Positions 1,093 to 18,374 of a stretch of 24,000 nucleotides of DNA are shown one piece after another. Numbering within the stretch: the stretch's first letter is position 1; every line of letters begins with the position of its first letter. Under the pieces are notes generated by a model. The model did not search any database, was not told the DNA's origin, and was given only the letters and a program-made list of their open reading frames with translations. Source of the DNA: Peribacillus sp. FSL E2-0218 (GTDB lineage Bacteria > Bacillota > Bacilli > Bacillales > DSM-1321); contig NZ_CP150304.1 in assembly GCF_037992945.1 (NCBI RefSeq), forward strand, positions 500,816 through 524,815, in the 5' to 3' direction. A program made the position numbers and the translations under genes.

Positions 1093-2091
1093 ATGACAAG
1101 AGAAAAAAGATTAATACCTTACAAAGTTCTTGAAGTAATGGAAACGGTGAAAGAAAAGATTCCCGAGGGCATCGAGCTTGTGAAAGCCCCTGCAGTTTGG
1201 GAAAAAAGCAATTATGGTGAGGGTGTTGTAGTCGCCGTCATCGATACAGGAATTGATAAGGAGCATCCAGACCTCAAAGAGAGAATCATTGGCGGGAAGG
1301 ATTTTACCAATACCGGAGATTTTCAAGATGATAACGGGCATGGAACACATGTATGCGGTACGATACTGGCTTCCATTAATAACGTTGGTGTAGTGGGAGT
1401 GGCTCCGAAAGCAAGCATTTTGGCCTTGAAGGCCTTGAATGGGCAGGGTCAAGGTGAAATAGATTGGATCAATGGAGCCTTGGAGTATGCGATCAATTGG
1501 CAGGGGCCGAATGAAGAAACGGTTTCGGTCATTTCACTTTCACTTGGGGGGCCGCCGGATGAGGCGGAACATAAGCTGATTCAAAGGGCCATCCAGAAGG
1601 ACATTCTTATTGTTTGTGCGGCTGGGAATAGCGGGGATGGGCGTCATGAAACCGATGAATTGGATTATCCAGGTGCGTATCCAGAGGTAGTGGAAGTCGG
1701 AGCTGTGGATTTAAGCAGAAATTTAGCGGATTTCTCAAATACGAATGATGAAATTGACTTGGTTGCGCCAGGAGTCGATATACTCTCTACGTATCCAGGT
1801 AATAAATATGCCAGACTCAGCGGAACATCAATGGCAACTCCGCATGTAAGCGGTGCAGCAGCTCTCTTGAAAGTGATAGCTGAACAGGACTTTGGCCGCA
1901 AGCTGACAGAGGCAGAATTGTATGCTCAGTTAGTGAAAAGTACGGAAGATTTGGGAATCAGTAAAAAAGCACAAGGCAATGGGCTGCTCAACTTAACCAT
2001 TGCGGACCAAAGGGTTGAAAAATCTATTAAGATTACCATAGAGTCAGAGAACCTTAAATTACCGAGTAAATCAGTGGTCATGGAATACTGA
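1093..2091 (+). CDS. ispA: Intracellular subtilisin-like serine protease (S8 family, ISP type)
   Basis: Catalytic triad contexts AVIDTGID (Asp), HGTHVCGT (His) and GTSMATPHVSG (Ser). There is no signal peptide. The N-terminal extension carries the LIPY motif (REKRLIPYKV) typical of intracellular subtilisins. I prefer the ATG at 1093 (GAAGGAAGGGG SD 7-8 nt upstream) over the ORF-track start at 1069. Confidence 0.88.
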   Translation: MTREKRLIPYKVLEVMETVKEKIPEGIELVKAPAVWEKSNYGEGVVVAVIDTGIDKEHPDLKERIIGGKDFTNTGDFQDDNGHGTHVCGTILASINNVGVVGVAPKASILALKALNGQGQGEIDWINGALEYAINWQGPNEETVSVISLSLGGPPDEAEHKLIQRAIQKDILIVCAAGNSGDGRHETDELDYPGAYPEVVEVGAVDLSRNLADFSNTNDEIDLVAPGVDILSTYPGNKYARLSGTSMATPHVSGAAALLKVIAEQDFGRKLTEAELYAQLVKSTEDLGISKKAQGNGLLNLTIADQRVEKSIKITIESENLKLPSKSVVMEY

Positions 2092-2092
2092 C

Positions 2093-2124
2093 AAAAAAGG
2101 TGTCCCAGGATTCTTGGGACACCT
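2093..2124 (-). terminator. Rho-independent terminator (serves ycnI; hairpin shared with the convergent protease gene)
   Basis: aggtgtccca (2098-2107) / tgggacacct (2115-2124) form a perfect 10-bp stem. The A-run at 2093-2098 gives a U-run on the minus strand. Confidence 0.75.
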
Positions 2125-2136
2125 TACTCAATAATT

Positions 2137-2805
2137 TTATCGTTTATTTTTTCTTAGCGCTGCAATAAGTGCTACAAGGGACAAGATCAGTGCTATGACA
2201 GATAGGGTGATGATCAGTGTTTCATTACCATTACTTTTATCATCTGCTGTTGCCGTGTCCTTTGAATTGTCGGTTGCTTTGGAATCATCGGTTGCAGCTT
2301 CATCTTCGTGCCCGTGATCAGGGGACTCTGCATCAGCCTTTGGGGCTACCGAAATTTGCGTTACTGAATGCGGTAGGGCGGAACCTTCATCACCGCTCCA
2401 TTCGACGATTTCACCATCTTTATAATATTGAAAGGCGTCCCAAGCGACCTTCGTTTCTTCTTTAGGGTTTTGGGCAATGAATGAGAATTGCTGGAATTGT
2501 CCAGCGGATATGCCTTCACCGGTTGCTTCCCAAGTTACCGTTTTAACACGCCCATCCTTATCTCCTTCAGTTGTCACTTTCCATCCTGGTACAGGCTCAT
2601 AGCTTTCAAAGGTAACCCCTTCAGGAACCTTTAAAGTCACTTTCGTTGTCGGCGTTTCTTTTTCGACTGGAACTTTTATCGAGTAGGTTTCCCATGCCTC
2701 AGGGGCAGATGAACTAGGTTTGACAGTAACGTGTGCATTCGCCGAACCAGCGAATATGAGTAATGCTGCAAATGTAGAGATGAGTAGTTTTGTAATGTTT
2801 TTCAT
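2137..2805 (-). CDS. ycnI: YcnI-family (DUF1775) copper-binding membrane-anchored protein
   Basis: The signal peptide ends in ANA followed by HVTVKP, so the mature N-terminus is a His, as in the B. subtilis YcnI Cu site. A beta-rich ectodomain is followed by an acidic linker and a C-terminal TM anchor (LIITLSVIALILSLVALIAAL). It lies 18 nt downstream of ycnJ with its own GGAGGG SD. Confidence 0.85.
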   Translation of the reverse strand: MKNITKLLISTFAALLIFAGSANAHVTVKPSSSAPEAWETYSIKVPVEKETPTTKVTLKVPEGVTFESYEPVPGWKVTTEGDKDGRVKTVTWEATGEGISAGQFQQFSFIAQNPKEETKVAWDAFQYYKDGEIVEWSGDEGSALPHSVTQISVAPKADAESPDHGHEDEAATDDSKATDNSKDTATADDKSNGNETLIITLSVIALILSLVALIAALRKNKR

Positions 2806-2823
2806 CAGTATAATTCCCTCCAG

Positions 2824-4458
2824 TTATGAATTCCCTATAAAAATTGTAAAATCAGCATTGATCGAATCGAGATTTTCCGTTAAACCGTGAACATGAATAT
2901 TCCACTTTCCTGGCAAGGTTAGTATAGACTTTGAGGTGAACTTACCTTTGGTTTTCCCCTGCAATTGCAGCTTTATTTCACCGCCCTGCCCATCTGCAGG
3001 CTGCATCGTGAGGGTTAGCTGCTCGATATCAGCAATTGGCTCACCGCCATTTGCCAGTTCAACTTGAATCCGGTTATCCCCGACTTCATTCGGGGTGACC
3101 ATTAATGTAACCTCATTGTTTTCTTCTGTCTTTATCGTTTTTTCAAATGGTCCGGGAGAAGACATCGCAGTTTGGACATTAGTCAATAGAGCTGCAACAA
3201 GGAGTACTGCCACACCAATTCCAAGCTCGATTCCTGCGCTATAGCCCAGTTTTTTCGTTTGCTTTTTCCCCTTGAGGAAATGCCAGGCACCTAAAACGAT
3301 CATGATTGTCATGAGAACGATTTTCGCAAGCAATAATTGACCATAGGTTGTGTTGAACAAGGAATGGATGGTCGGTACATGCTGCAGGCTGCTATATATG
3401 CCGCTAATGACCAGGATGATTACACATGCGAAAGCCCATCTGGAAAACCTTTGAATGATCGTCCAGTAAAAGATTTTTTTATCCTCCTGGACTGCCTGCC
3501 GGTCGGCTAGCCCAGGCAATATCACCAATAAGGCCATAAGTCCGCCCATCCATAATGCCATCGACAATATGTGGAGGAAATCCATCAAGACGGCGAGAAC
3601 GTGATTAGGAACGGCTGCCGTATGTCCAGTTAAAGCCTTACCAAGCATTAAGAAGGCCGTCAGGATAAAAGAAAGGAAGGGCAGAGCTTTATTCAAGGGA
3701 TTCTCAAGCATGAAATAAAGAGCTAAAAATAGAAGGATCAACATGAGTATTTGAATGATCCAGATGGTACCGAAGCTTGTGCCATTCAGTACTTCCTTGA
3801 TATATGTCCCATTAAAAGCATCCGTCCAGCCCACGCCAGCGTCAATCGTCACCTTTAAAGGCAGGCTGCAGAAGGTGGCAAGAGCTAAACCAATGTAGGA
3901 AATCCATAGATATAGACGTGCTCTTCCGCTAGCTTGAAAAAGGCGGGAGTCCTTCGTTAAAGATAGGCGGAAAAATAGAATACCAGCAACGGCCGCGAAG
4001 CTTATGTATTGAAGGCCTTGCAAGAACACATTTATGGAAGTCGGAAAACCTGCGTTCATTTTTGAATGATCTTGGTCTGATAAGGAGGCTGAGTCGCCGA
4101 ATTGAAAGGGGATTGTCCCTTCGATCGGATGGCCGTCACTCGAGACCACTCTCCATTTAATATAATAAACGCCTTCATCGACAGTGCCTTTCCACTTAGC
4201 TTCCAATATCTTCTCGCTTTGTTCCGATATGGCGCTTTTTTGAACGGGAACCTTCTGTCCATCTTGACTGAAGACTTCAAGCGAATGGAAAGCCGGCTGT
4301 ATATTCTCGCTGAATTGAATGCTGATCTTTTCAGGAAGAGTATCCATGGCTTCATTCGGGCTAGGATTGGAGCTAATTATTGTAGCATGCCCAAAAGCCA
4401 TTGCCGGGTATAGAAATAAGGTAAATAGGCTGATTACCAGCCATAAGTAATTCTTCAT
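2824..4458 (-). CDS. ycnJ: YcnJ-type copper import protein (CopC-CopD fusion with C-terminal YtkA-like domain)
   Basis: Signal peptide followed by HATIISSNPSPNE (CopC N-terminus), then about 8 TM helices (CopD-like) and a soluble beta-rich C-terminal domain. Operon partner of ycnI. Confidence 0.85.
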   Translation of the reverse strand: MKNYLWLVISLFTLFLYPAMAFGHATIISSNPSPNEAMDTLPEKISIQFSENIQPAFHSLEVFSQDGQKVPVQKSAISEQSEKILEAKWKGTVDEGVYYIKWRVVSSDGHPIEGTIPFQFGDSASLSDQDHSKMNAGFPTSINVFLQGLQYISFAAVAGILFFRLSLTKDSRLFQASGRARLYLWISYIGLALATFCSLPLKVTIDAGVGWTDAFNGTYIKEVLNGTSFGTIWIIQILMLILLFLALYFMLENPLNKALPFLSFILTAFLMLGKALTGHTAAVPNHVLAVLMDFLHILSMALWMGGLMALLVILPGLADRQAVQEDKKIFYWTIIQRFSRWAFACVIILVISGIYSSLQHVPTIHSLFNTTYGQLLLAKIVLMTIMIVLGAWHFLKGKKQTKKLGYSAGIELGIGVAVLLVAALLTNVQTAMSSPGPFEKTIKTEENNEVTLMVTPNEVGDNRIQVELANGGEPIADIEQLTLTMQPADGQGGEIKLQLQGKTKGKFTSKSILTLPGKWNIHVHGLTENLDSINADFTIFIGNS

Positions 4459-4767
4459 CTTGGTATGCCATCACCCTTTCATTAGGTTATGTAAGCTTAT
4501 TATAAAAGGAAAATGTGAAAAAACAGTGAAAATAAATGAAGCATCCAAAGGCAGTTTCAAGGCTCGATGGATTTAGCTAACGATAATGTCAAAGTGGACT
4601 GGCTCCAGTCATTATAGACATGTAAATGATAAGTTGACAATGGAAATGGTGCACCTCATTCACCCAGCTTTAGAAATAATTAAGGTTTCTTTAGTATTAT
4701 AACCTTATTATGCTTGCTGGAATCATAGGGGGATACAATGCTTAACCAAGGAGTAAAGGAAAAAAGC

Positions 4768-6024
4768 ATGAAGGTGCTTTTGGCTGGTTCTCTCATTGGC
4801 ATGGGGACATTCACGTACTTGCCTGATGCTAACGCTGCAAAAGCCGGCATCGCACAAGAGGTTAATACGATAAATGTTCTGTCAAAGTTAGAGATAGAAG
4901 GGGCTTCTCTCAATTAAGATTTTTCAGAAAGTGTACATGACTATCGAGCAACAGTCGAGAATGATATTGAAAAGATCGACTTGCATGCCGAAAGTCAAAG
5001 TGAGAATGCCGCCATTTTCGTGAACGGTACGAAGCTGATAAATGGTGTGGCCAGGAACCTGCCTCTTCAAACAGGCATGAATAGGTTTGAAATTACCGTC
5101 AGCGATGGAATTAGTGAGGCGGTTACCTATACCGTCGTAATCGAAAAGCTTGAAAGTGGCGATAATCGCTTAACTTCAATCGGGGTTATCTCAGGGCTCG
5201 CTGGCTTTTAATCCCAATGTATCATCGTATCATGCTTCGGTGGAGAATAAAGTCAAGAGCGTTACGATATCTCCATCCTTGAGTGACCGTGCGGCTCATG
5301 TAGTGGTTAATGGAAAAGATGTAACGAAAAGTGGTGTGGAGGTTCCGCTTCCGATTGGTGACACAGCAGTGAAGATTATCGTGACTGCAGAAAATGGGGA
5401 CGAAAGAACCTACTTGCTTACGATTACGAGGGCTGACGGCAAGAAAACGGAAAAGGAGGAGAAGGATACCTCTCAAGAGGATAAGGGGCAAAAGCAACCA
5501 GCAATCGAAACGCCCCCTTCGACTGGAGCGGTTAAAGCAGATACTCTTTCTGCTCGTACATTTAATGATCAAAAAGCGACAAATGTCAGTCACACAGGAA
5601 AGGCAGCACAGCCTGAAAATGTTTCAATCCAAAAATGAATGCCGGTATAGATAAGGGATCGGCAGCAGAGCGTGTAGAAAAAGAGGATGAAGCTCCTGCA
5701 TTGAACCATTTGACAGCATCAACAGGAGAATGGAATAAACCCTTTCTTTCGAATGAGTATACATACCATATTGAAGTGGATAATGATGTGAACTCTGTGG
5801 AATTGGACGCTGCAACAGGAGCAGATGTGACAGCCATCGAATATGACGGCGGAAATAAAAAAAAGGTGAAGGTAAAGAATAAAGCGAAAACAGCCATTTC
5901 CGTTACCGTTTCAAAAGATGCGAAGCGACGTACTTACGTGCTTGTTTTCGAAAAGGATATGAAAGTGGAATTGGATGAGGAAGAAACTGTGGATGATGCC
6001 AAACAAGAGGAAAAAGGGGATTAA
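4768..6024 (+). pseudogene. Disrupted gene for a secreted protein with three cadherin-like beta-sandwich repeats (1 nonsense + 2 frameshifts)
   Basis: ATG at 4768 with an SD-like AAAGGA and a signal peptide (MKVLLAGSLIGMGTFTYLPDANA). An in-frame TAA at 4915-4917 interrupts a repeat (LEIEGASLN*DFSESVHDYRATVEN). The frame shifts +1 between 5174 and 5208, near the gggg run at 5182-5185 (the repeat continues as GLSQGSLAFNPNVSSYHASVENKVKSVTISP). It shifts back between 5617 and 5635 at an A5 run (continuing as ...ALNHLTASTGEWNKPFLSNEYTYHIEVDNDVNSVELDA). Confidence 0.65.
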
Positions 6025-13040: not shown

Positions 13041-13466
13041 TTGCATGCAAATTCTTTAAGGGAGATTCACTCGGCCATCTCGGGCAGAATGTCGGATGTG
13101 AGTGAAAAAATCAATCGCTTGGAGCAGGCTAAACGACAAATCAATGAAGAACAAGATATATGCTTGGGAGAAATCAGGAAAATAATACATCCGGAATTGG
13201 CAGGAAGCTGGACGGGAAATCGAGCCGATGATTTCCAAGATGCCCGCAGCGATGCGTACAAGGCCATGTCTACGATCATTCATGCTGATTATGACGACTA
13301 TCAAGAGAAAATCGAAGGAAAAATCACAATGCTGAATATAGAGAAAACAGCTTTGAGTGCAGCAGGCACCATAGCCCATGAAGCGGATGCCCTTTTGGAA
13401 AAAGGAGAAGCCGTCATTGATCAATTGGAAAGTAAACTATCATATTTAAAAGGGTGGTTGTTTTAA
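13041..13466 (+). CDS. YwqH-like (DUF5082-type) helical LXG-toxin helper protein
   Basis: 141 aa, all-helical heptad-like sequence with the …WTGNRADDFQDAR… motif seen in B. subtilis YwqH. TTG start with GAGGTG SD 7 nt upstream. Its stop overlaps the next start (TAATG). First gene of the LXG operon. Confidence 0.7.
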   Translation: MHANSLREIHSAISGRMSDVSEKINRLEQAKRQINEEQDICLGEIRKIIHPELAGSWTGNRADDFQDARSDAYKAMSTIIHADYDDYQEKIEGKITMLNIEKTALSAAGTIAHEADALLEKGEAVIDQLESKLSYLKGWLF

Positions 13467-13753
13467 TGACGACAATCAAGCTGAATCATCCTGCCGTAAC
13501 GAAGCAGGTCGATCAGGTAAAGACGGCCCTTGGTGGCGTCAGTCTTGGACATGTACCAGCAGGAGAGCTTGGCAGCAATAAATTGGAATTTACCTCGAAG
13601 TGGATGGATCGGGAAACGAACCTTGAGAAGGTTTTCGAACAATATATTAAAATCGTCCAAAAAAATGTCGAAGATACCCGGGCCAATATCGATTTATTAA
13701 AAGAGCAGGATGAAGCCATCGCCCATACTTCACATGGGTATCCTGCGAGATGA
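13466..13753 (+). CDS. YwqI-like / TIGR04197 (SACOL2603)-type small T7SS helper protein
   Basis: 95 aa from the ATG at 13466 (the track start at 13454 lies inside the upstream gene). The …GSNKLEF… and …LLKEQDEAIA pattern matches the YwqI family. Its stop overlaps the LXG start (ATGA). Confidence 0.65.
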   Translation: MTTIKLNHPAVTKQVDQVKTALGGVSLGHVPAGELGSNKLEFTSKWMDRETNLEKVFEQYIKIVQKNVEDTRANIDLLKEQDEAIAHTSHGYPAR

Positions 13754-15720
13754 AAATATACGAAGCCGAGAGCTTGCAGGACGCAACCAAGTCACGCGCC
13801 AAGCAATATGAAGAGTTAAAGAAGCAAATCAATGCCCTGAAGAAGGAATTTCAGGGGATCGTCGCCCTAGATCACGAGTTTCAAGGAGCCGGTGCTGCCG
13901 CCATCAAAAGCTTCTATGAAGCGCAGATCGACGTGGCGGACGCCTGGATTGAGCTATTCACGACGCAAATCAGTTTTTTGGAGGGCATTCCTGCCACTCT
14001 CGAAGATGCGGACCTCTCCGGTAATACGGTGGTGGAGGTTCCTTTTTTAGATGGGGAGGTTTCGAATGGCATCAAGCAAGCGAAGTCGCTTGTCGATGAA
14101 CAAGCAAGCGATCTTAGCAGAATCCTGAACAGTATTGATGATATCCTACCTCTGGATATGTTCGACCAAAAGGATTTTAATGAAAAAATCACGCTGGCCG
14201 GGCATAGACTGGATGACACCGTGACAAAGGTAGAGAATGTCGACCGGCAATTGGTCGAGGAGTATGAAGTGTCTGTCGGGCAGGAAAACGTGGCGGTTGG
14301 CCTTTTCCGTGCCTTGCTTGATGCGACCAAACAGGACGGCACCATTTCGCCGATGACGTTCAACCAAACAGCCTTCAAGAATAGTGAAGTCTATCAAGTG
14401 AAGGATGAAGTCGCCGGTCAGATGAAGGAGTACCAGACCTTCAAAAAGGAACAAGCCGAAGCCAAGGAAATCGAACAAGAAATGGAAGAACTCGAAAACC
14501 GCCCATGGTACGAAAAAGCCTGGGATACGACAAAAACCTTTACAGGGGAATTTACGGGATATTATGATTCAATCAGGGCAACGACCGGGGTCGATCCAGT
14601 CACGGGCCGCAAGCTGTCCGATGCCGAACGAATCGCCGCAGGCGCCATGGCGGCCGCTGGGTTCATCCCCGTCGTCGGCTGGGCCGGACGGGCCATCAAG
14701 GGCGGCAGTGCCATCTACAAAACGGCCAAAGGACTGAACGCCGCGAATCACGCACTCGACGCTTACAAATCGACAAAGGGCTTTAGCCTTCTCCAGAAAT
14801 CCGAATACGGGATATACGGACTCCTCGCCGCCAACGGCCTTGGCGAAGCCGCCACAGGCAAAGACATGTTCGGCAACCAGCTAACCGAGGAACAGCGCCA
14901 GAACGGCCTCTTGATGGCACTGGGAATCGGCAGTGTGGCTGGTGCAGCCAAAGTCGCCGATAAAGTAGCAAGTGGTACAAAGTTCATCCCTTACAGCAAG
15001 GAATTTGCGCAGAAGCAGGTTCAGAAGGTTCAAGCTTTCGGCAGGGAAATCGGCAAGGTGGAAGTTCCTCTCCGGATTAGGGTCGAAGAATTAGCGACGG
15101 CGTATGGATACAACTATAAATATGTCACTTTTGATAATACTACGGTTAAGGATATCGTGCAGAAGTTTACGGTTAAGAGTGATGGTGGTAAGGGTACAGG
15201 CAAAGTAGTGCTTGCAAAGGAATCCATTGAAATTACAAAAGTGGAGTATGGAAAGCATTATACAAGAGAGCGGATGAAGAAAGTTTTAAAACCGAATATT
15301 GAATATACATCCCCTGGTGGTCACGTATATAAAACAGACGAAAAGGGTCGTATAACAAGTGTAGAAGGTTCTCTCGACTTAGGTAGTGGTAAACGAAACA
15401 ATTATGCTCAGCGAATTGCTGGAAGGGAAGACCGCTTGCCGGATGATCAAGGGGGCCACTTAATCGCCAGCATATTTAAAGGGTCTGGTCATCTAGACAA
15501 CCTTGTTCCTATGAATGCAAACCTGAATATGGGAGAATGGAAAAAACTCGAAATATCTTGGGCAAAAGCTTTAGACAGTAATCCTCCTAAAACAGTAGAA
15601 GTGAAAATTTATCCTGTGTATGAGGGAAATTCAACTCGACCTACAAGTTTCGACATAGAGTATAAAATTGACGATGGCCGTTGGGATTTAAGAACATTTG
15701 AAAATAGAGCAGGGGGATAA
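13750..15720 (+). CDS. T7SS LXG-domain polymorphic toxin with PT-TG-like pre-toxin region and C-terminal beta-beta-alpha-Me (Endonuclease_NS_2 / EsaD-YeeF-type) nuclease
   Basis: N-terminal LXG domain (MKIYEAESL…LDHEFQGAGAAAIKSFYEAQ…). A Gly/Ala-rich region contains VDPVTGRKLSDAERIAAGAMAAAGFIPVVG (PT-TG-like). The C-terminus reads …RLPDDQGGHLIASIFKGSGHLDNLVPMNANLNMGEWKKLE… with a candidate catalytic His at 15457-15459. Confidence 0.9.
   Translation: MKIYEAESLQDATKSRAKQYEELKKQINALKKEFQGIVALDHEFQGAGAAAIKSFYEAQIDVADAWIELFTTQISFLEGIPATLEDADLSGNTVVEVPFLDGEVSNGIKQAKSLVDEQASDLSRILNSIDDILPLDMFDQKDFNEKITLAGHRLDDTVTKVENVDRQLVEEYEVSVGQENVAVGLFRALLDATKQDGTISPMTFNQTAFKNSEVYQVKDEVAGQMKEYQTFKKEQAEAKEIEQEMEELENRPWYEKAWDTTKTFTGEFTGYYDSIRATTGVDPVTGRKLSDAERIAAGAMAAAGFIPVVGWAGRAIKGGSAIYKTAKGLNAANHALDAYKSTKGFSLLQKSEYGIYGLLAANGLGEAATGKDMFGNQLTEEQRQNGLLMALGIGSVAGAAKVADKVASGTKFIPYSKEFAQKQVQKVQAFGREIGKVEVPLRIRVEELATAYGYNYKYVTFDNTTVKDIVQKFTVKSDGGKGTGKVVLAKESIEITKVEYGKHYTRERMKKVLKPNIEYTSPGGHVYKTDEKGRITSVEGSLDLGSGKRNNYAQRIAGREDRLPDDQGGHLIASIFKGSGHLDNLVPMNANLNMGEWKKLEISWAKALDSNPPKTVEVKIYPVYEGNSTRPTSFDIEYKIDDGRWDLRTFENRAGG
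14969..15033. repeat. 65-nt homology segment, copy 1 (inside the LXG gene, encodes SGTKFIPYSKEFAQKQVQKVQ)
   Basis: 63/65 identical to 16378-16442 (mismatches at 15004 and 15012), aligned by hand. Both copies are in the coding frame. Confidence 0.9.
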
Positions 15721-15723
15721 AAA

Positions 15724-16191
15724 ATGAATGAATCAAAACTAAATGAATATTATCAGAAAATAGCTCAAACAGTAAATGAGATGATTCCAGAAGAATGGAG
15801 TAAAGTTATTTTGTATGGAGAAGTTAATGAGGGGACAGGGACTGCGTTCTTTTTCTATCAGTCTAATATTAATGATAAACTCATATATAGTCACGATATC
15901 CCTGAATTACATAGTATTAGTAGAATAGAGTATAGAGATACTTGGCGGAGGTTAATAAAGGTTTTAAAAGAATTATCAGATGAATTTAAAGATAATAATC
16001 AAGAACAATGGACCAATTTAACTTTTACTTTAGAAAGTACTGGGGAATTTAAAGTTGACTATGATTATGAAGATTTATCAAATGCAGATGATCACGAAAG
16101 AAGGGTTATTTGGGAATATACTCGTTTGGGTCTTTTACCTGAAACTGAATATGATAAGAGTATTTTAGAAGAATACCTCAAGAAAGAATAA
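15724..16191 (+). CDS. YezG/EsaG-family (DUF600) immunity protein
   Basis: 155 aa starting 3 nt after the toxin stop. Motifs …IPEEWSKVILYGEV…FFFYQ…, …WTNLTFTLESTGEFKVDYDYEDL… and …YTRLGLLPETEYDK… match the DUF600 pattern of YezG/EsaG, the known partners of EsaD/YeeF-type nucleases. Confidence 0.8.
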   Translation: MNESKLNEYYQKIAQTVNEMIPEEWSKVILYGEVNEGTGTAFFFYQSNINDKLIYSHDIPELHSISRIEYRDTWRRLIKVLKELSDEFKDNNQEQWTNLTFTLESTGEFKVDYDYEDLSNADDHERRVIWEYTRLGLLPETEYDKSILEEYLKKE

Positions 16192-16222
16192 TGGAGGATA
16201 AAAAAAGCTTGTTTTTTTGTAT

Positions 16223-16251
16223 GACCTTAACGGTAAAGTTAAGGTCTTTTC
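16223..16251 (+). terminator. Rho-independent terminator closing the expressed toxin-immunity operon
   Basis: gaccttaac (16223-16231) / gttaaggtc (16238-16246) form a perfect 9-bp stem with loop ggtaaa, followed by TTTT. Confidence 0.7.
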
Positions 16252-16377
16252 ATTGTAGAAATAGCATATGTATTGTTTTAAGTTATATCGGGCTTCTCAT
16301 ATAAAAGGCCGTTAGTTCTAAAAAAGATATATAGATAAGAATATGGATTTACTGACCTCAGACATCGTGATTAAATA

Positions 16378-16442
16378 CAAGTGGTACAAAGTTCATCCCT
16401 TACAGCAAGGAAATTGCGCAAAAGCAGGTTCAGAAGGTTCAA
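16378..16442. repeat. 65-nt homology segment, copy 2 (5' edge of the orphan toxin cassette)
   Basis: 63/65 identical to 14969-15033. It begins 7 nt after the stop codon (16368-16370) that opens the orphan reading frame. Confidence 0.9.
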
Positions 16443-16535
16443 ACTACAATAACAGACATTGCGAGATCTGGAAAAGCCACGTTAAAAAATATAGGTGAAG
16501 AACTAGGTAAAAAAGAAATCCCTAAACGGATAAGT

Positions 16536-17165
16536 ATGGAACAAGTATCCCTCGCAGGAGGACCAACCCTTCGCCAAGTTATGATGGAAAAGCAGACAAT
16601 TAAGGAAGCCTATCAGAAATTCACGGTTAAGGATAGCAAAGTAGAGGGTGTTTCTGGGGAGAGTATTACTAAAGGTAAAGTGTATCCAACTAGACAAATA
16701 GATTCAGTAGCAGAAACACATATAATTGATAGAGTAAAAGAGCTAAGAGGAAATTTAACAAGTAGGTATAAGAAATCTGGTAATTTTGCTGTTGCAGAAG
16801 TGGATGTCAGTGGGATAAGTAAATCTGAATTTTATGCTCAAAGTAGCATAAATGAACTCAAAGGAAGTCTTGAGGATATGGTGCCTGATATTTCTTTACA
16901 ACCTGAAAATCCAATGTTTAAAGCTACAGAAGCTATTGGTAAAGAGGGAGAGAGTTACTTAAGGAATACAGATACGGAGTATAAAATACTAAATGACATT
17001 GCTTCTGGGCTTGGGGAGAATACACAAGCTAATGGGAAAATTAAGTTATTTACAGAATTGGATACTTGTTACAGTTGTAGTAAAGTCATAGCAGAGTTTG
17101 CTGCTAAATATAAAAATATCGAATTAGAAGTCATACACAACAATGGTAATAGAATTATTCCTTAA
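16536..17165 (+). CDS. Orphan LXG-toxin C-terminal cassette (frame open from 16371; no credible start/SD), deaminase-fold-like tip
   Basis: The frame is open over 16371-17165 and starts with SGTKFIPYSKEIAQKQVQKVQ, homologous to LXG residues encoded at about 14972. It also shares QKFTVK (16614-16631 vs 15160-15177). The first ATG at 16536 has no SD. The tip has a D-T-E (16971-16979) followed 30 residues later by C-Y-S-C (17067-17078) within a strand-helix-strand pattern. Confidence 0.6.
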   Translation: MEQVSLAGGPTLRQVMMEKQTIKEAYQKFTVKDSKVEGVSGESITKGKVYPTRQIDSVAETHIIDRVKELRGNLTSRYKKSGNFAVAEVDVSGISKSEFYAQSSINELKGSLEDMVPDISLQPENPMFKATEAIGKEGESYLRNTDTEYKILNDIASGLGENTQANGKIKLFTELDTCYSCSKVIAEFAAKYKNIELEVIHNNGNRIIP

Positions 17166-17193
17166 ACTTAATTTTGAATGGAGGAGAAAATTA

Positions 17194-17550
17194 ATGAAAG
17201 ATTGGGGATATAATGAATTATTTGATGCGATTCAGGAGACATATGAAGAGTTGTTAGAAGAAGATAGGGGATATAGGTATGCTATAGCAAAACTAGCTGA
17301 TGAATTTGATAGATTAGGCAAGATAGAAGATTTTATTGTTGATACTGCTATTGGAGAGATAGCAATCGGCCATGAAAAAGTATATGTTGGGCGCATTGAA
17401 GGTATAACAAAAAGGTTAAGCATGTTTATCCCACAAGAAGCAGAATCTGACTTAACATTAGAAGAAATACAAGACTTATCGAAACGAATAAAAAAAGTAA
17501 TACAAGGACTAAGAAATGCAGAGGTTGATTATAATTCATCAGCAGAATAG
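17194..17550 (+). CDS. Putative cognate immunity protein of the orphan toxin
   Basis: 118 aa, acidic and helical. The ATG at 17194 has a strong GGAGGAG SD (17181-17187); the track start at 17143 overlaps the toxin and lacks an SD. It lies directly downstream of the toxin tip. Family not recognised. Confidence 0.55.
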   Translation: MKDWGYNELFDAIQETYEELLEEDRGYRYAIAKLADEFDRLGKIEDFIVDTAIGEIAIGHEKVYVGRIEGITKRLSMFIPQEAESDLTLEEIQDLSKRIKKVIQGLRNAEVDYNSSAE

Positions 17551-17586
17551 CAGGTGAAAGAAAAATATTTAATCATGAAGTGTTAA

Positions 17587-17618
17587 CCTTGAGTGGACAA
17601 AGCCATTCGAGGTTTTTT
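17587..17618 (+). terminator. Rho-independent terminator after the orphan cassette
   Basis: ccttgagtgg (17587-17596) pairs with ccattcgagg (17603-17612): 10 bp including 2 G-U pairs, followed by T6 (17613-17618). Confidence 0.65.
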
Positions 17619-18060
17619 AATGAATTAGACAGTTTTAAATCTTAGTATGTTATCTATGATGGCTAAGTGTTATTTTTATAATTTTTGAAATTACAGGAAA
17701 CTAAACAAATGAACCAACTAGAAGCAAAAGAAATAATCGAGCAATTTCATAGTTTTTGCGCAGATAAAGCAATCAATGAAGAGAATGGGGATTGATATCA
17801 ATCACCGATATAAATATAAAAAAGCATTATAGGGGCTTTTATGTCCAGATCCCAGTTTATCCTATGTTAAACAGGAACCGCGACGGTTTGTACCTCATGT
17901 ACTGGAAAAAGGTTTGAATATCCACCCAATTCTTTAATTAAGCAAGCAAGCGATTAGTTTTACAAAAAGTGGGTATAAAGTATGGAGCGACCTTTCATTT
18001 AATAGCTAACACTAAGTTTTCTTTATGTTGAATAAGGAGAATTTGGTGGGAGGTGATTAA

Positions 18061-18251
18061 ATGAGGAAAGTCTATGGTATTAAAAGTTTAATAAGTACCT
18101 TGAGTCGGTAAATCAGCCAATTACCGAAGAGGAGATCAATGATCTGATATTAAATAAAAAGATACCCCATCTCAGACCCATCAATAATTTACTGGTTTTT
18201 AATTTAGATCATATTGATGGCTGGCTTCATGACCAGCCATCCAAACCTTAA
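18061..18251 (+). pseudogene. Possible frameshifted small excisionase/MerR-like HTH gene remnant
   Basis: A strong SD (GGAGGTG) precedes the ATG at 18061, but that ORF stops after 16 codons. The frame offset by two bases continues as KYLESVNQPITEEEINDLILNKKIPHLRPINNLLVFNLDHIDGWLHDQPSKP*, which resembles the …IP..K.G….F….I..WL pattern of excisionase-type HTH proteins. Weak call. Confidence 0.3.
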
Positions 18252-18290
18252 CTAATGGAAGCCCTGCTTACAAGTGAATTTAAAGGGAAA

Positions 18291-18340
18291 AGCCGGCCAA
18301 GGTGTTTCATGAAAACCTTGGCCGGCTCCTTTTCTTTTTT
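18291..18340. terminator. Strong hairpin terminator between convergent units
   Basis: agccggccaagg (18291-18302) / ccttggccggct (18316-18327) form a perfect 12-bp stem. A T-rich tract follows on the plus strand, and a weaker U-tract on the minus strand (for the DUF445 gene). Confidence 0.8.
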
Positions 18341-18374
18341 ATTAGTGGAAAGGGATCACCAGCTGGCGCATGAC

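Follow-up and report, generated by a model that had tools for sequence, protein, structure and literature searches.

The toxin deaminases closest to the domain described here belong to the BURPS668_1122 clade, which is defined by the RxxDxExK motif and in which a DxE motif replaces CxE/HxE (Iyer, Zhang, Rogozin & Aravind 2011, PMC3239186). In this clade the C-terminal elements of the deaminase fold are truncated, the immunity proteins are Imm2, Imm3, and SUKH, and the delivery routes include the T7SS (PMC3239186). Imm3 is an all-alpha protein, the partner of BURPS668_1122 deaminases in Firmicutes, and displaced cassettes in polymorphic toxin loci are typically homologous, in frame, to the full-length gene at their 5' end (Zhang et al. 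2012, PMC3482391). A CdiA protein of Pseudomonas has been reported to carry a tip of the corresponding Pfam family, PF14424 (PMC4725963). In a structure-clustering screen with a Cas9-nickase base-editor reporter, PF14424 members "possessed ssDNA cytidine deamination activity" (bioRxiv 10.1101/2023.05.21.541555); in the literature we found no dedicated biochemical study of a PF14424 member. The LXG toxin YwqJ, from a sister clade, deaminates cytidine in ssDNA and is delivered by the T7SSb (PMC13648612).

Here we describe a stretch of 24,000 nucleotides of the Peribacillus sp. FSL E2-0218 chromosome (hereafter, the window). An earlier note on this DNA had read one of its open reading frames as an orphan toxin tip with a deaminase-fold-like signature and a non-canonical first zinc ligand. 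Our analysis indicates that positions 16371-17550 are, with high probability, a displaced ("orphan") cassette that pairs a PF14424 deaminase tip with Imm3 as toxin and immunity protein and belongs to a type VIIb-secretion LXG locus (Table 1). The locus cleanly illustrates an LXG polymorphic toxin system accompanied by a spare deaminase tip and immunity gene, and its importance is mostly limited to correct annotation.

Table 1. Features of the LXG locus and its displaced cassette; positions are those of the window.
Feature	Position	Strand	Basis
Small helical partner gene in the LXG operon, YwqH-like	13041..13466	+	Pfam PF16888 YwqH-like, E 3.8e-9
99-aa ORF between the YwqH-like and LXG genes	13454..13753	+	ORF list; 99-aa ORF at the same position in syntenic locus L018
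Full-length LXG toxin, 656 aa: LXG, PT-TG, C-terminal Endonuclea_NS_2 nuclease tip	13750..15720	+	Pfam
68-nt direct repeat, copy 1, in the LXG gene directly before the variable tip	14969..15036	+	repeat family D1
YezG-like immunity gene for the nuclease tip	15724..16191	+	Pfam PF04634 E 4.7e-50; TIGR01741 E 4.5e-41
Terminator-like hairpin between the toxin/immunity pair and the orphan cassette	16223..16246	+	9-pair stem then T-run; consensus match only
Orphan toxin open frame: linker stub and deaminase tip, without LXG domain	16371..17165	+	stop-to-stop ORF, 264 codons
68-nt direct repeat, copy 2, in frame at the orphan 5' end	16378..16445	+	repeat family D1
Tip ORF, 209 aa	16536-17165	+	ORF list
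Toxin-deaminase domain of the BURPS668_1122 clade (residues 67-203 of the tip ORF)	16734..17144	+	Pfam PF14424; same place in whole-genome search
D146-T147-E148 within R-N-T-D-T-E-Y-K, start of helix 2	16971..16979	+	sequence, gat-acg-gag
C178-Y-S-C181, start of helix 3	17067..17078	+	sequence, tgt-tac-agt-tgt
Imm3 immunity gene	17194..17550	+	Pfam PF14425 Imm3 E 1.7e-44, full length
Terminator-like hairpin closing the cassette	17585..17614	+	12-pair stem then T-run; pattern scan

The family of the tip was assigned by profile search. With hmmscan against Pfam, the tip matched PF14424 at E 2.4e-49 (167.6 bits, cut-off 29.6) over all positions of the profile (1-146/146), and the sub-threshold Pfam matches were all to AID/APOBEC-like families (NAD1, E 2e-4; SNAD4; APOBEC2; APOBEC4-like; APOBEC_N); a profile search of NCBIfam found no model for the tip. 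A word-indexed search returned 114 relatives, the closest of which are 98-92% identical and carry the name "deaminase domain-containing protein" in NCBI records of Bacillus sp. and Peribacillus, and phmmer, run exhaustively against 1.84 billion representatives, returned 707 relatives at E <= 1e-3. The domains found N-terminal to the PF14424 tip elsewhere are LXG, Nuc_N, and VgrG-like (Phage_GPD/Phage_base_V). This match and the modelled fold described below support the reading that the tip is a predicted deaminase-fold polymorphic-toxin domain with Asp in the usual place of His/Cys. The other option of the earlier note, an unrecognised toxin fold, is ruled out by the full-length Pfam match, with which both family and fold are recognised. 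Membership of the YwqJ or DddA-like families, to which the note had likened the tip, was rejected: neither PF14431 (YwqJ) nor PF14428 (SCP1.201/DddA-like) matched at E <= 1 in Pfam, and the Gx[CH]xE motif of YwqJ is absent, the tip having TDTE at that place.

The RxxDxExK motif is intact in the tip (R143-N-T-D146-T-E148-Y-K150), and C178 follows E148 at a spacing of 30 residues; the positions and the gap that the earlier note gave for DxE and CxxC were all correct. We aligned 222 domain hits to the query, 215 of them covering the DxE position and 204 the CxxC position. Asp146 is shared by 207 of the 215 relatives (seven have C and one has Y), Glu148 by 214, and the flanking Arg143 and Lys150 by 213 and 209, respectively. 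Cys178 is conserved in 202/204 and Cys181 in 204/204, and the residue that precedes the first Cys is most commonly Thr (T 95, P 70, A 26). Since Asp and Thr are both the majority states of their PF14424 columns, neither is unusual here: the earlier note named the residues correctly, but they are no departure from the norm of the family, where D is found in 207/215 and T outnumbers P (95 vs. 70). Asp in place of His/Cys is a family hallmark rather than an oddity and was described for the clade in 2011. The novelty that the note implied is thereby lost, as DxE is the published motif of the clade and near-identical proteins are annotated as deaminases; the tip is a routine, already catalogued and annotated, and thus already known, member of PF14424.

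Seven of the 215 relatives are CxE variants inside the DxE clade (P0144, P0148, P0163, P0180, P0202, P0212, and P0228), and these natural variants offer a possible comparison by which to judge the role of Asp. From the first Cys onward, the tip reads C-Y-S-C-S-K, in which the trailing "xS" of the published CxxC(xS) is, taken literally, absent. The CxxC context of most sampled relatives, Cx-S-C-[S/N], is the same as in the tip and likewise has no trailing "xS", and the difference from the published CxxCxS is probably one of register in the published table. The protein ends no more than 10 residues past the domain in 208 of the 222 relatives.

An AlphaFold2 model of positions 16668-17162, built from a 44-sequence alignment, was obtained with high confidence (pLDDT 93.9, pTM 0.90), and its elements follow the order a1-b1-b2-insert-a2-b3-a3-b4. 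In ORF numbering, the modelled helix 1 spans residues 61-72, strand 1 residues 84-91, and strand 2 residues 98-102; helix 2 (147-159) starts at DxE and is followed by strand 3 (167-173), and helix 3 (179-191) starts at CxxC and is followed by strand 4 (195-201). The four strands read FAVAEVDV, EFYAQ, GKIKLFT, and IELEVIH, the helix at DxE TEYKILNDIASGL, and the helix at CxxC YSCSKVIAEFAAK. Between the strand at model residues 54-58 and the helix at 103-115 lies a 44-residue insert (model residues 59-102), which contains a short helix and a small hairpin. The modelled chain stops 8 residues past strand 4, and helix 4 and strand 5 are missing. The element order, DxE at helix 2, and CxxC at helix 3 place the model in the deaminase superfamily (CDA-like, Pfam clan CL0109), whose fold is a three-layer alpha/beta arrangement, and the predicted structure is a deaminase core that lacks helix 4 and strand 5, in agreement with what has been published on the BURPS668_1122 clade. 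The alternation of strands and helices that had been predicted from the sequence agrees with this model.

The structural comparison suggested in the earlier note pointed the same way: in a Foldseek search against the PDB, AID/APOBEC deaminases occupied all of places 1-41, with weak scores (best E 2.8e-3, probability up to 0.99, TM 0.36-0.42), and no DddA or SsdA structure was among the 50 matches listed. Neither the protein itself nor a 25-sequence profile retrieved a solved relative from the PDB by sequence; the matches were limited to sub-significant ones to APOBEC3 near the CxxC helix and one to MalE1, which we discarded as due to chance. The phmmer alignment pairs FTELDTCYSCSKVIAEF of the tip with FTSWSPCFSCAQEMAKF of an APOBEC3G helix (PCxxC). 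The nearest solved folds, APOBEC3/AID, fall within the helix-4 division, whereas the 2011 classification puts the clade beside SCP1.201/DddA in the C-terminal-hairpin division, and the division is not readable from the model because strand 5 is absent.

The immunity gene adjoining the tip, Imm3, is one of the three immunity types of the BURPS668_1122 clade (Imm2/Imm3/SUKH). Its start lies 29 nt past the toxin stop, a GGAGG ribosome-binding site is found 8 nt 5' of its ATG, and its product is 85% identical to that of the gene that follows a full-length deaminase toxin in a congener (G002). A promoter scan, in which sigma-70-like sites were fewer than in shuffled sequences, was uninformative on Imm3 expression.

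The cassette lies downstream of a full-length LXG toxin/immunity pair. Pfam assigned to that toxin the LXG (E 1.9e-39), PT-TG (1.1e-21), and Endonuclea_NS_2 (4.8e-41) domains, and the 99-aa ORF in front of it probably encodes a second small partner protein. The earlier note had taken the orphan tip to be the ORF starting at position 16536; this ORF exists, but the true open frame begins earlier, at 16371, with a stub homologous to the LXG linker. It extends 55 codons 5' of ATG 16536, is closed by the stop that precedes 16371, begins with ...SGTKFIPYSKEIAQKQVQKVQ, and runs over 264 codons with no internal stop and with every family-conserved residue retained in the tip. Residues 4-93 of the orphan frame are 46% identical to the linker of the upstream LXG protein, the two copies of the 68-nt repeat are 96% identical and in frame, and no Pfam domain was found in 16371-16712. 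The repeat is presumed to be a recombination handle. The frame thus shows structural features of an orphan cassette: it has no N-terminal trafficking domain, it stands downstream of a complete toxin/immunity pair, and its 5' homology falls at the trunk/tip junction.

The same 5' region bears on a different explanation, according to which the 209-aa ORF is expressed from ATG 16536 as a stand-alone small deaminase that forms an intracellular, toxin-antitoxin-like pair with Imm3. NCBI pipelines do call the 209-aa product (P0001), many short (170-350 aa) "deaminase domain-containing proteins" are found in Bacillaceae, and the proximity of the toxin stop to the Imm3 start is operon-like. However, no Shine-Dalgarno sequence precedes ATG 16536 (aaacggataagtATG), a pattern scan found no promoter-like site above shuffle expectation, and the frame extends further 5', where it is homologous in frame to the LXG gene, a feature that one would not expect of an independent gene but that is typical of displaced cassettes (PMC3482391). 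In addition, full-length LXG toxins of congeners end in the same tip. We therefore regard a stand-alone deaminase as improbable and retain the displaced cassette as the preferred reading. Judged from these sequence features, the orphan tip is probably silent in this genome, since it has neither an LXG domain nor a ribosome-binding site of its own.

The GC content of the locus differs between the PT-TG/Gly-Ala-rich trunk (55-61%, positions 14500-15100) and both tips and both immunity genes (30-38%). The low-GC zone of this mosaic, 15100-18100, includes an ORF-free stretch up to ~18100; the AT-rich interval 17551-18370 has no ORF >= 100 aa, and no cassette remnants came up in it when the additional immunity and stub genes of a congener's locus were used as tblastn queries. 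The genome as a whole contains one PF14424 domain, one Imm3, two LXG genes, and one YukD, a marker of T7SSb. The second LXG toxin gene, a 605-aa frame, lies at 4.01 Mb (G000:C1:4011728-4012312, L004), and YukD lies ~100 kb upstream of the locus (G000:C1:410942-411169, L019), both LXG loci being remote from the secretion genes.

Within the genus, 9 of 47 species, counting the genome of the window itself, have a PF14424 match. The same layout as in the window recurs in one congener (G031, L018), in which a 656-aa LXG toxin and a 155-aa YezG-like protein are followed by a 209-aa orphan and then Imm3. Two others (G002 and G003) encode the PF14424 domain within open frames that are 675 and 652 aa long, and P0117 likewise combines LXG with PF14424. 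The 674-aa protein of G002 matches the toxin of the window along its LXG trunk (residues 1-486, 55% identity), with a deaminase tip replacing the nuclease, and the whole orphan frame aligns at 69% with residues 404-674 of this full-length LXG toxin. Its locus (L016; G002:C12:391500-399500, positions 1670-5013, minus strand) encodes the LXG-deaminase toxin followed by two Imm3 paralogues, the second of which is 54% identical to Imm3 of the window; past them lie one more immunity-like gene and an additional stub of LXG linker, making up a poly-immunity/orphan array.

Comparison of these copies also bears on the possibility that the tip is a relic in decay, of no use in future, with selection acting on Imm3 alone as protection against the deaminase toxins of neighbours. 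PF14424 fragments with internal stops or truncations, which look like decayed cassettes, are all that is present in several other species of the genus (G018, G024, G034, and G045; L008, L009, L011, L012, and L014), and over 162 codons 6 non-synonymous and 2 synonymous changes separate the two intact orphans, those of the window and of G031. One of these changes is D to Y inside CxxC (CDSC to CYSC). These counts fit relaxed constraint on silent cassettes but are too small to test it. Against decay stand the intact 264-codon frame with all of its family-conserved residues, the 96% identity of the handle to the live LXG gene, and the ~93% identity of the orphan tip to the tip of the G002 full-length toxin, with a dN/dS of 0.20 (Nei-Gojobori, 162 codons). 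A mere relic consequently appears unlikely to us, and we continue to favour a spare cassette. Two of the PF14424 fragments in G024 are separated by ~2 kb and lie near 500 kb, which is similar to the coordinate of the locus in the window.

On this favoured reading of a displaced cassette, recombination between the 68-nt handles would delete 1409 bp and put the deaminase tip in place of the nuclease tip; the fused LXG-deaminase form exists in G002, and the recombinant was not observed in this genome. Joined to the LXG trunk, the tip would then be exported by the T7SSb into a neighbouring cell. In the predicted active site, Cys178 and Cys181 and, judging from its position, Asp146 would hold zinc, with Glu148 shuttling the proton. 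By analogy with its family, the exported tip would most likely deaminate cytosines in ssDNA, a substrate extrapolated from unnamed PF14424 members in the reporter assay (bioRxiv 10.1101/2023.05.21.541555), and the outcome would be uracil lesions, mutagenesis, and growth arrest. Imm3 would presumably neutralise the toxin by binding and blocking the deaminase domain and, having its own GGAGG, may protect the cell against neighbours that already use the deaminase tip.

The substrate is the part of this scheme for which another possibility deserves weighing, namely that the tip is a deaminase-fold enzyme acting on a target other than ssDNA cytosine, such as RNA/tRNA, dsDNA, adenine, or free nucleotides. 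All of these substrates are covered by the deaminase superfamily, the Asp ligand, the 44-residue insert before helix 2, and the lack of strand 5 could alter substrate binding, and the sole report of activity for PF14424 is a reporter screen. That screen, however, gave ssDNA cytosine deamination for PF14424 members (bioRxiv 10.1101/2023.05.21.541555), the sister-clade LXG toxin YwqJ is an ssDNA cytosine deaminase (PMC13648612), and the solved structures nearest to the model are those of APOBEC3 enzymes, which act on ssDNA; we thus consider a different target doubtful and keep ssDNA cytosine as the most likely substrate. There is a slight chance that the Asp metal site, the insert, and the missing strand 5 make the ~140-residue domain differ from HxE/CxE deaminases in substrate range or sequence context, for example through activity on dsDNA, on RNA, or on ssDNA whatever the sequence context. 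If so, compact LXG tips of Bacillaceae would be useful as a new base-editor scaffold.

Compared with the known systems, the tip and its immunity gene show no difference of substance from the BURPS668_1122/PF14424 toxins paired with Imm3 (Iyer 2011; Zhang 2012), except that the domain in the window is a displaced cassette and not the tip of a full-length toxin. YwqJ of B. subtilis (PF14431), an LXG ssDNA cytidine deaminase, resembles it in that the deaminase fold forms the tip of an LXG/T7SSb toxin and that an immunity gene adjoins, and both clades have an insert before helix 2 and belong to the same higher-order group (Iyer 2011, PMC3239186); YwqJ differs in its Gx[CH]xE motif in place of DxE, in its immunity proteins (SUKH3/Imm6/YwqK), and in forming a separate Pfam family. 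The AID/APOBEC enzymes provide the nearest solved structures and the nearest sub-threshold Pfam profiles, and their PCxxC helix aligns with that of the tip, but they use HxE rather than DxE, possess helix 4 and strand 5, and are only 9-16% identical to the tip, at TM 0.36-0.42. The closest clade according to Iyer 2011 (PMC3239186) is DddA/SCP1.201 (PF14428, BaDTF1), which shares with the clade of the window a polar residue two positions past the catalytic Glu ([HD]xEx[KQ]) and includes some DxE members; DddA, in contrast, acts on dsDNA and is paired with Imm1/Imm4/DddI. The PF14424 clade is a sister of the YwqJ and DddA/SCP1.201 clades and a member of neither.
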